64,000 nt of DNA from Candidatus Bathyarchaeota archaeon. GTDB taxonomy: Archaea > Thermoproteota > Bathyarchaeia > Bathyarchaeales > Bathycorpusculaceae. This document shows, piece by piece, positions 36,001-39,000 of the stretch (positions within the stretch are counted from its first letter, which is position 1; every line of letters starts with the position of its first letter). The stretch covers positions 106,547 through 170,546 of the forward strand of contig CAVRFW010000003.1 in the NCBI GenBank assembly GCA_963720565.1. The letters run 5' to 3'. Made by a program: the position numbers.

Positions 36001-39000
36001 ATGGCTATTCTAGCCCAAACCGCAAAAACCCAAAAAATACCCATGGTTGTGACGAGTCAGGTCAGAAGCGTTTTCGACGACTCTTATGTTAGTGTTGCAC
36101 CCGTTGCCACTAGAGTTTTAAAATTCTGGGCTGATACAATAATTGCCATGAAACCCGCTGAAAACCCTCAGATGATAAAAGCAGTAATTGAAAAGTTGAG
36201 AACACCAACTCAAGAAATCTCCTGCGACTTGATAATAGAAGAAACTGGAATACGCGATTATCAATTCTAGTATTGGTTGATCATATGGAAATAGGATTCC
36301 TGATTATTGAGGCATTGAAATTCATATTCCCCGCATATTGCGCAAACGGCGCTCCAGTGCTCGCAGGCGGGGGGCTTCCGTTGGATTTTGGCAAAAACTT
36401 TCTTGATGGAAAGCGTATTTTTGGCAAAAATAAAACATTCAGAGGATTCTTCTTTGGTCTTTTGATAGGTGGGTTGGTTGGGTTAGTAGAGGTCGGTCTT
36501 TTTGGTTATCCTGTACTTTTCAGCTTCGTCTCGCCTTTTGGTGCCCTTATGGGCGATTTGGCGGGTGCTTTCCTTAAAAGGAGGCTGAACATTTCTCCTG
36601 GTGGTTTGCTCCCCGTTATCGATCAGATTGACTTCGTAGTTGGCGCAGTGGTCTTCTCTTTGCCCTTGTCTATTGTGAGCTGGCAGTTGGCAGCAGTGGT
36701 CTTGATAATCACTCCTCCCATTCACCTGTTCACTAATTACTTGGCTTATAGACTAAAGTTGAAAAGCAATCCTTGGTGAATGCTACTATCCGCCTTTTAT
36801 CTTGATTGCAGCCTCTATGAAAATGTACGCGAGAAGTAGGAGCGACGCGCCAATAACGACCATCATGTAAGCTTGCCGTGGCTTGTAGGCGTACTTTGTG
36901 CTTGTATAGATTGCAAGCAAACCTGCAAAACCGATGGCGTAAAGCACGGCGGAGATTATGGTGTCGGATATGAATTGTTCTCCGAGCTCGGGATAGAGAA
37001 AGTAGAATACGCCATTGTAATAGGCTGACGGGAGCGGTTGGGAGATGATAGTCAGCAATCCTCCACCAAAAAGAAATATTGTGTAGCCGAGTAAGAGTGC
37101 TGTTACCACGAAGGTTGAGGGCTTTGCCGTGGAAATTCTCCGGAACCATCCGCCCATTGAATACGACGCTGAAGAGGCGCCCTTCTTAATTTTTTTAGAC
37201 ACTTTTTGCTACCTCATTATCAATTAAGTACTTTGCTACTTCTTTAGCCCATTCTCCTGTTAATGAATTTTTCTCAATCTCACTTAAATATTCTTCCCAA
37301 GAGAGTCCGAGTGCCTTCTTCCAAACATCATAACTATTGGCTACGCTTTGGTATGCCTTAAAGTGGAAGATGCAGAAATCTACTTTGTCGGTCTCTCTAT
37401 TGCATACTTTGCATTTCAATGTTTTACCACCAGCTGCTCTTTTAGTGAACAATTAGGATTAAAACATAAATTCCATGGATGTTTCCCTCCAGCCCAGACA
37501 CGCACGGTAGGCCAACCACAACCTTTGCAGGTCTTGCCCGTTGGTTTTACGCCTCCTTTCTGTGGAAGAGGAAAAGCAGTTTTACACATATCTTTAAAAT
37601 AGTTAGTGCAACCTACAAATCGTTTGTTTGTTTTCTTAGAATGCAGAATCACGAGTTTTCCGCTATTGCACATTGGGCACGCGCCGATTGTTCTCTCTTT
37701 GAGTTTAGATTTTCTTATTGCTTGAGTCAAGCTTGCGCCTATCACATTTTCGTTTTCCTTAAGTTCTCGTGTTGAAAGCTCCAAAATTGCCATGGTGTCG
37801 TTCAAAGTGTTTTGTTTTGTTTCATTTCCCTGTTGAATTTCGTTCATTCTTTTCTCAAGCTTACGAGTTAATTCAATTGATACAACCGAAGGACAGTGTT
37901 TTCTCAGAACTTCGATGACTTCGAATCCTAGGTCGGTCACCCTGATTTTTTCCTCTAGGATATATTCTCTATCGTACAAGGTTTGTATAATCCCTGCTCT
38001 TGTTGCCTTGGTTCCTATTTCTTCTCTTTCCATTTTCTTGAGGAGACTGTCTGGGATTGTATCTTGAAAGAGGTTTGGTAAACATGTCTTCCGCCTCTAC
38101 TTTTTTGACATCGAGTTTCTGGCCTTCTTTCACACGAGGTATCGGTCTATCTTCTGAATGTATGTATGGCTTGTAGAAATGGAGCCAACCTTCTTTCAAG
38201 GTTAGTCTTCCATCCAGTTCAAACTGGCTTCCGCCAATTGCAGTAGTCATCCTTACTCTCTGCTGAGTTGCAGGTTCTCCAAAAACTGCCATGAATCTTC
38301 TAACAATAAGATCCAATATTTTCTTTTCAGAGCTATTAAGAGTCCTATCCGGTATGTTGCCTGTGGGGTAAATAGCGGGATGGGCTAAGTCTTCCACTTT
38401 TCCCTCTGTTGGTTTCAGGGTGGATTTGGCGAGAAGCTCTGAGGTTAAGCCCTTATATTCTCTGTTTCTGTTCAGCTTCTTTAGTATGTCATCATACCCT
38501 ATTGATGGCGGAAGCTTTTGGCTTCCTGTCCTCGGGTAGGAAATTAAAGCGTCTAAATACAAGCGTTGAGCAATGTTCAAAGTGTAAATTGGAGAATACT
38601 TGAAAAGGCGGTACGCTTCACTTTGTAGAGAACCTATGTCGAAAGGGTATGGTGGTCTCTGCAAAAACTCTTCAGCGTCAAATTTTTTCTACAGTTCCTT
38701 CCTTTGTTTTGCAGCGGGCAACTATCACATCGGCTTCTGTTTTGGTCTTAATGTCTTCTCTGTTTTCAACTTCAAAAACTGAGCCTGCAATAACGATTTT
38801 TGCTTTCACTTTCCAATAAGGGGTAGGCACGAAACACTTTATCTTCTTCTCTCTTGCCTCAATAAATTTTAGTGTTGGTCCCTGGACTCTTCCTGTGCTG
38901 AGTGTAGCGTAATATCCACTGTACCTTTTTGCTGCTGTGGTCAGTGCTCTGGAGAGGTTTACTCCGTAAAGCCAATCAACTTCATGCCTTGTCAGTCCAG

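Follow-up and report, generated by a model that had tools for sequence, protein, structure and literature searches.

A DC2/OSTC-like membrane protein as a candidate partner of AglB in Bathyarchaeia, and its co-occurrence with a ribophorin I homologue

The locus and its conserved neighborhood

Within the window (i.e., the whole 64,000-nucleotide stretch of DNA that was analyzed, from a Candidatus Bathyarchaeota archaeon), a short gene for a 138-aa membrane protein lies close to the gene for the catalytic oligosaccharyltransferase (OST) STT3/AglB. The features needed here are listed below, including one from another contig.

35563..36270, plus strand: RadB-type recombinase paralogue, a conserved neighbor
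36273..36779, plus strand: CDP-archaeol synthase CarS, convergent neighbor with 6 bases between the stops
36786..37202, minus strand: OSTC/DC2-like gene, putative OST accessory subunit, 138 aa
36795..36797, minus strand: codon of K136, aligned with K142 in the FMRMK assembly motif of human DC2
37195..37452, minus strand: 85-aa ORF resembling the C-terminal part of archaeal topoisomerase I
37416..39541, minus strand: DNA topoisomerase I (topA), three ORFs here, upstream on the same strand
39677..39883, plus strand: small zinc-ribbon protein, between the DC2-like gene and stt3
40220..42448, plus strand: STT3/AglB, catalytic OST, 742 aa
42477..43346, plus strand: glycosyl transferase family 4 (GT4; AglH/Alg7-like by inference), directly behind stt3
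Contig C10, 5901-7649, outside the window: ribophorin I/OST1 homologue, 582 aa

The DC2-like gene is the last of a minus-strand run (topA, the 85-aa ORF, and the DC2-like gene) that is convergent with radB-carS, and on the far side of this run lie the zinc-ribbon gene, stt3, and the GT4 gene, whose product by inference catalyzes the first step of lipid-linked glycan synthesis. A distance of 3,018 bases separates the start of stt3 from that of the DC2-like gene, in line with the 3 kb given in a preliminary description of this DNA; the stt3 product is encoded once in the genome and carries SVAEH, WWDYG, and the double sequon at 558/562. The 85-aa ORF, which stands as a gene of its own here and occurs in 14 of 40 loci, matches PRK05776 (crenarchaeal topoisomerase I) at 604-673 with E 4e-14, and the 8 bases at its stop are shared with the start of the DC2-like gene, an arrangement that suggests one transcript for the two. 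Contigs of related strains are one base shorter than ours near 38053 and near 38679-38683, within topA, and the topA of relatives is intact (708-712 aa); assembly errors or strain-specific frameshifts in this gene are therefore likely. A further frameshift is possible at 33750-34866 on the minus strand, where two successive ORFs resemble halves of one kinase, which we take to be a Clp1/NOL9-like polynucleotide kinase.

The 138-aa ORF is a real gene at the coordinates given before, with a GTG start at the place where many relatives begin with MSKK/MSRK. A metatranscriptome contig covers 36794-37034 (others cover stt3) and was rejected as a sign of expression, because 0.06 of the words are present in that run, which may contain DNA. 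A promoter scan with a sigma-70 model, which is unsuited to archaea, returned matches at chance level.

The neighborhood was surveyed in 40 loci, each spanning at most 19 kb and selected for their spread across families. The genes radB and zinc ribbon were each found in 30 loci, carS in 25, stt3 in 23, and topA in 14. The zinc-ribbon protein has two CxxC motifs and matches no family over the cut-off, and its gene often stands between the DC2-like gene and stt3. All 23 occurrences of stt3 were within about 9 kb of the DC2-like gene (an STT3 profile gave the same 23, with none found in the other 17), compared to the 1-2% that our own arithmetic gives for chance linkage of a single-copy gene. In most loci stt3 was on the opposite strand, in five it stood head to head with the DC2-like gene at less than 400 bases, and in eight it was retained where neither carS nor radB was found. 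CDP-archaeol synthase is a common neighbor, as previously described, being adjacent and convergent in 24 loci and lying at 2.5 kb in another, although the proportion of 9 in 10 did not persist once other classes were sampled. The linkage of stt3 is thus far above chance but belongs to an old conserved block, and hence supports a partnership without proving it.

Family membership, fold, and topology

Sequence searches with the 138-aa protein returned 1,367 relatives at E ≤0.001 out of 1,572 candidates, the closest named ones being Bathyarchaeota/Bathyarchaeia proteins, whose database labels supply the class name, with one of them labelled ‘OST3/OST6 family protein’. Up to E 1, the sole Pfam family was OST3_OST6 (PF04756), and the weak match reported before was recovered (E 8.2e-6; 25.9 bits vs a cut-off of 27), confined to the membrane part (profile 180-288); an NCBIfam search found nothing relevant. 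Human OSTC was the best match of the single sequence in the PDB, with E 0.76, and family profiles strengthened this considerably: OSTC and MAGT1 (6s7t_H) were matched at E 2.2e-10 and 2.5e-9 with 16 members, at 9.1e-16 and 2.2e-8 with 41 Thermoproteota members, and at 3.8e-19 and 3.4e-10 with 149 members that included Asgard-like ones. The two were the sole proteins found by the 41-member profile (three sequences, E up to 0.05), and the deep profiles favored OSTC over MAGT1 by 24-29 bits. The proposed homology to OSTC/DC2 therefore stands, together with the fold match below, whereas the statement that a family profile hits OSTC only does not, given the MAGT1 matches.

In an AlphaFold2 model of the 138-aa protein (pLDDT 91, pTM 0.75), an N-terminal helix precedes three membrane helices, the first two of which are joined by an outer loop containing a hairpin. 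Foldseek ranks 1 to 11 were all chains of OST complexes. By VIA-align, the four best fold matches were, in order, MAGT1 (Z 13.3, rmsd 1.7, 103 aligned), OSTC (Z 12.5, rmsd 2.1, 104 aligned), and yeast Ost6 and Ost3 (Z 10.7 and 9.1), followed by the next fold at Z 7.2. Membership in the OST3/OST6-OSTC family is thus secure, and the homology reaches the membrane module of MAGT1/Ost3/Ost6 as well, with the fold scores of OSTC and MAGT1 tied.

The modeled parts comprise a basic N-terminal helix (3-25), TM1 (30-54), a beta-hairpin in the outer loop (60-67), TM2 (78-103), and TM3 (108-137), corresponding to the three hydrophobic segments of the sequence. Lysine and arginine number seven in residues 1-28, zero in loop 1, and three in loop 2, and the predicted N-in/C-out topology fits that of DC2. 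The 138-aa protein has neither a cysteine nor a thioredoxin domain, which upholds the earlier claim on the latter, as do the restriction of the Pfam match to the membrane part and the three-helix model. CxxC occurs in 0 of 41 members, and 146 of 150 representatives are no longer than 200 aa, with the four longer ones lacking a thioredoxin-like N-terminus as judged by eye. Two longer representatives (P0237 and P0200) carry extra N-terminal parts, which by eye look like a zinc finger with HEAT-like repeats and a beta-helix-like part, perhaps a chimera. No longer fused form was found among proteins of 351-2000 aa, a range that excludes the 300-340 aa of Ost3/6.

Residues G47, Q76, and G94 are invariant in the 41-row alignment, while K136 is invariant in 16 rows, at least 90% conserved in 149, and below 90% in the 41 as aligned; this lysine is all that the 138-aa protein keeps of the FMRMK motif of DC2. 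The GG-I-Y and Q-x-x-x-E motifs attributed to the protein hold as a family consensus, although its own sequence reads GGGLL and Q76-x-x-x-D80 (Q-F-I-S-D) at these places. Judging from sequence, the 138-aa protein is best seen as a short unfused form of the DC2/Ost3/Ost6 family that is nearer to DC2.

Distribution and the accompanying ribophorin I homologue

The 16-member profile matched 210 of 401 Thermoproteota genomes, including every other genome of the order (46 of 46) and of the class (59 of 59), and 150 of 341 outside the class. Copy number was one in 58 of the 59 class genomes (two in G061) and one in the genome examined. The gene is therefore single copy here and universal in the order, as the preliminary description held for Bathyarchaeales, though it is not specific to that order. 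This profile found no member in families f15 (0 of 56), f16, f24, f25, f29, and f30 (our labels). A deeper profile, applied to a selection of 78 genomes, brought in family f19 with a match in each of the 15 genomes tested, and among 42 double negatives its matches were full length in one case (G377) and weak and partial in nine. Named relatives come from Methanomethylicota, Thermoprotei, Tardisphaera miroshnichenkoae, and Lokiarchaeota, and the family occurs in about half of the Thermoproteota sampled and in Asgard archaea.

Pfam PF04756 matched 303 of 401 Thermoproteota genomes and was set aside as a census of the family because it counts thioredoxins: families f15 and f30 were matched in 54 of 56 and 15 of 15 genomes by Pfam vs 0 of 56 and 0 of 15 by the membrane-part profile. 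The wide reach of the Pfam family stated earlier (340 Thermoproteota genomes) thus fails as a measure of this family, consisting largely of thioredoxins. A quick unrooted tree, limited to archaeal rows, with long rows cut to their last 170 residues and 34 of 81 inner branches open, grouped the 138-aa protein with its own family, order, and most of its class, and separated the Asgard-like rows, at a weak support of 87, from almost all rows of Thermoproteota. The grouping fits what would be expected of inheritance by descent within the class.

No other OST subunit had been noticed in this genome, and this no longer holds. Pfam PF04597 finds no ribophorin I here, but an archaeal profile built from 12 members that PF04597 found elsewhere matched the 582-aa protein on contig C10 (5901-7649) at E 4.5e-114. 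This homologue has a hydrophobic N-terminus, one further membrane helix, and a cytosolic helical bundle. A ten-member profile that includes it matched human RPN1 at E 2.2e-24, the cytosolic domain of MK-D1 OST1 (8whn) at E 8.7e-18, and yeast Ost1 at 3e-7, with profile positions 423-562 aligned to the 8whn bundle. Some homologues are about 400-450 aa long instead of 550-620; the first outer domain is seemingly absent in L103 and L112, and f21 matches end near profile position 425, before the bundle.

PF04597 matched 69 of 401 genomes, 66 of which carry the DC2-like gene, and the ten-member profile matched 212 of 401. Across 400 genomes, 176 had both genes, 156 neither, 33 the DC2-like gene only, and 35 ribophorin I only, counts that overstate the co-occurrence since kin are not independent. 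Seventeen of the 35 ribophorin I-only genomes gained a DC2-like gene with the deeper profile (one partial, at a contig end), and six sampled families (127 genomes) lacked both accessory genes at the thresholds used. Family f7 of the class (G002, G029, G117, and G342) had the DC2-like gene in four of four genomes and a ribophorin I match in none, and a two-subunit OST is possible there. Eight f32 genomes showed weak ribophorin I matches (E 9e-8 to 8e-6), maybe coiled-coil noise, and no DC2-like gene. Among the 40 loci, only G165:C8 (L070) had the ribophorin I homologue near the DC2-like gene, at a distance of about 6.6 kb.

Pfam searches for Ost4, Ost5, DAD1, OST48, ribophorin II, and KCP2 gave nothing over the cut-off in this 89% complete genome, and sub-cut-off matches (Ost4 E 0.93, DAD E 0.45, KCP2 E 0.03) were set aside, the last of them as spurious; a ribophorin II search had no match anywhere. 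As PF04597 missed the ribophorin I of this very genome, these empty searches do not show absence.

A predicted AglB complex, its possible roles, and known systems

Complex prediction for the 138-aa protein and the STT3 of the genome gave a score of 0.78 (runs of 0.78, 0.76, and 0.79), while the best of three controls scored 0.00. It passed a mark that 116 of 157 solved complexes attain, as against 2 of 215 mismatched pairs, which is a rough guide here, with alignments of our own. The runs agreed in at least 94% of contacts, with a partner pLDDT of 78. Contacts on STT3 fell at 364-391, 401-413, 435-443, and 458-486, i.e., the end of EL5 with TM10, TM11, the end of TM12, and TM13 by our own helix count, which matches the published Ost3 site on TMH10, 11, and 13 of Stt3, as described in the excerpted text of PMC7226087. 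Predicted interface residues of the small protein were more conserved than the rest (2.10 vs 1.73 bits, p 0.003), and the AglB-facing G47, Q76, D/E80, and K136 are among its most conserved positions; those of STT3 were not more conserved than their neighbors (2.35 vs 2.40 bits, p 0.73). Because STT3-DC2/Ost3 structures have been solved, the pass may reflect likeness or memory and not the pair of the 138-aa protein and AglB itself. We consider it very probable that the 138-aa protein partners the AglB/STT3 of its genome.

Our favored explanation, which in its full chain we regard as slightly more probable than not, is that the 138-aa protein is the small non-catalytic subunit of an AglB-DC2-like-ribophorin I OST docked on SecY. 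The protein would insert with its N-terminus in, three helices, and its C-terminus out, like DC2, and would pack on TM10, TM11, TM13, and the end of EL5 of the sole AglB/STT3. Ribophorin I/OST1, on the evidence of co-occurrence and of the Asgard protein, may then join the complex, with its cytosolic helical bundle available to the ribosome. The DC2-like subunit would finally use its free face to dock the complex on SecYEbeta, where sequons could be glycosylated as the chain emerges. If binding to AglB is granted, such docking is reasonably likely by analogy with DC2 and Ost3; DC2 and RPN1 place OST-A at the translocon for co-translational glycosylation (PMC10859629, in the part available).

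The main competing explanation, possible although we give it clearly less weight, keeps the protein bound to AglB and lets it act structurally only, steadying TM10-13 and EL5 and lining the groove for the lipid-linked glycan, with no docking on SecY. Homology, fold, and complex data serve it equally, and a putative donor groove is formed by Ost3 TMH2 and Stt3 in yeast, according to an excerpt of PMC7226087. KCP2, which is needed together with DC2 for Sec61 docking in human cells (Shrimal et al. 2017), was not found over the Pfam cut-off in this genome, and the fold ties with MAGT1, whose OST-B stays off the translocon (available part of PMC10859629). A purely structural role is, however, at odds with the 24-29 bits by which deep profiles prefer OSTC to MAGT1, with the co-occurring ribophorin I that retains the bundle by which the Asgard protein binds ribosomes, and with human STT3A complexes that are stable and active without DC2 (Shrimal et al. 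2017).

We find it improbable that the protein works outside the OST, e.g., in archaeal lipid synthesis with CarS or as a passenger in the topA transcript. The adjacency of carS in 24 of 40 loci and the overlap with the topA-like ORF would suit such roles, and the linkage of radB, zinc ribbon, and carS as often as or more than that of stt3 counts against our favored explanation, as do the 17 loci in which stt3 was not found and its place on the opposite strand in most. However, carS is convergent and hence not co-transcribed with the DC2-like gene, topA adjoins in 14 loci only, and stt3 persists in the eight loci without carS and radB; the conserved AglB-facing residues and the co-occurrence with ribophorin I argue the same way. 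Less probable still is a split Ost3/6 oxidoreductase in which the protein supplies the membrane half and a separate, exported thioredoxin the rest, even though the homology with MAGT1/Ost6 and the presence in these genomes of thioredoxins matching the N-terminal part of PF04756 could be read in that sense. The lack of CxxC in all 41 members, the size and N-termini of the 150 representatives, and the three helices with a basic N-terminus as in DC2, instead of the four helices of Ost3, speak against it, and the 138-aa protein would have no redox role.

That an AglB, DC2-like, and ribophorin I OST docked on SecY and the ribosome was ancestral to Thermoproteota, Asgard archaea, and eukaryotes is a tentative proposal to which we give a little less than even weight. 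If true, DC2-type co-translational glycosylation would be older than eukaryotes and not an innovation of animals and plants, the thioredoxin fusion of Ost3/6 would have come later, and joint loss of both accessory genes in several Thermoproteota families would account for the teaching that the archaeal OST has a single subunit. Should the complex exist, a multi-subunit OST of eukaryotic style would operate in about half of the Thermoproteota sampled, all 60 Bathyarchaeia genomes examined among them, and the eight-subunit human OST-A could be studied in a minimal form of three proteins. Tardisphaera miroshnichenkoae, which is in culture and carries a family member, is a candidate source. A real complex would also reverse the view of Shrimal et al. 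(2017), who regard the DC2-dependent mode as a late arrival and see no relationship between DC2 and MAGT1/TUSC3.

The family outside Asgard archaea is already in print. We take the human accession given as ‘OST3/6’ in the first table of one paper on these subunits to be OSTC, so that the likeness to DC2 would be implicit in that paper. Its authors (Carilo et al. 2024) report OST1 and OST3/6 in TACK archaea, and their Table 1 gives the human ‘OST3/6’ no signal peptide; the available part of PMC12411855 presents an OST3/6-like tree over 966 archaeal genomes. Lombard 2016, as excerpted, found no archaeal candidates, and the excerpted text of Meyer et al. 2022 has archaea using one OST subunit. 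Our literature search, outside which Zaremba-Niedzwiedzka 2017 and Nikolayev 2020 fell, found no paper whose main subject is the Bathyarchaeia or TACK protein, nor the distribution by family, the stt3 linkage, the paired presence of ribophorin I, or the predicted interface; the TACK distribution may already be in those two papers or in the supplement of PMC12411855. What we add is a revised picture of where the family occurs, the ribophorin I partner, present or absent in step with it, and the predicted interface.

Compared to known systems, the 138-aa protein resembles human OSTC/DC2 (6S7O H, 8B6L J, 9N9J J) in its size (138 vs 149 aa), its three helices without a thioredoxin domain, the GG-x-Y and Q-x-x-x-E/D consensus, the terminal lysine (K136/K142), which lies inside the predicted AglB interface, the fold (Z 12.5), and the predicted STT3 site. 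The N-in/C-out topology of DC2 has been shown (Shrimal et al. 2017), and, according to the available part of PMC5674889, deletion of the FMRMK segment inactivates DC2 and K142A lowers its activity. The archaeal protein differs in having about 20% identity, an outer loop about six residues shorter, and only the lysine of FMRMK, and its partner would be a single AglB and not STT3A of two paralogues, so that the STT3A vs STT3B specificity of DC2 has no counterpart in this genome; moreover, of human OST-A, KCP2, OST4, TMEM258, DAD1, OST48, and RPN2 were not found with Pfam, which is weak evidence. MAGT1/TUSC3 and yeast Ost3/Ost6 (6S7T H, 7OCI C, 6C26 3) share homologous last three helices (E 2e-8 to 3e-10), with the fold of MAGT1 (Z 13.3) tied with OSTC and its deep-profile scores 24-29 bits lower, and they have the thioredoxin domain, first helix, and cysteine that the 138-aa protein lacks.

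The Asgard ‘OST3/OST6’ proteins (MK-D1 QEE15371.1; Eme et al. 2023, Supplementary Table 3; arCOG14980) belong to this family too: our profile found Lokiarchaeota proteins that carry the label ‘OST3 / OST6 family protein’, and the available part of Eme et al. 2023 (PMC10307638) describes short OST3/OST6 proteins and arCOG14980, with two supplement rows of about 140 aa that cover the membrane part only. There, too, the small subunit is accompanied by OST1, whose cytosolic bundle binds ribosomes in the Asgard protein, although Asgard archaea, in the same excerpt, add Ost4, Ost5, in part Ost2, Wbp1, and Swp1, and TRAP. The catalytic subunit and its motifs are those of the single-subunit archaeal AglB, and unlike in the textbook system, two eukaryote-type accessory genes accompany AglB here.
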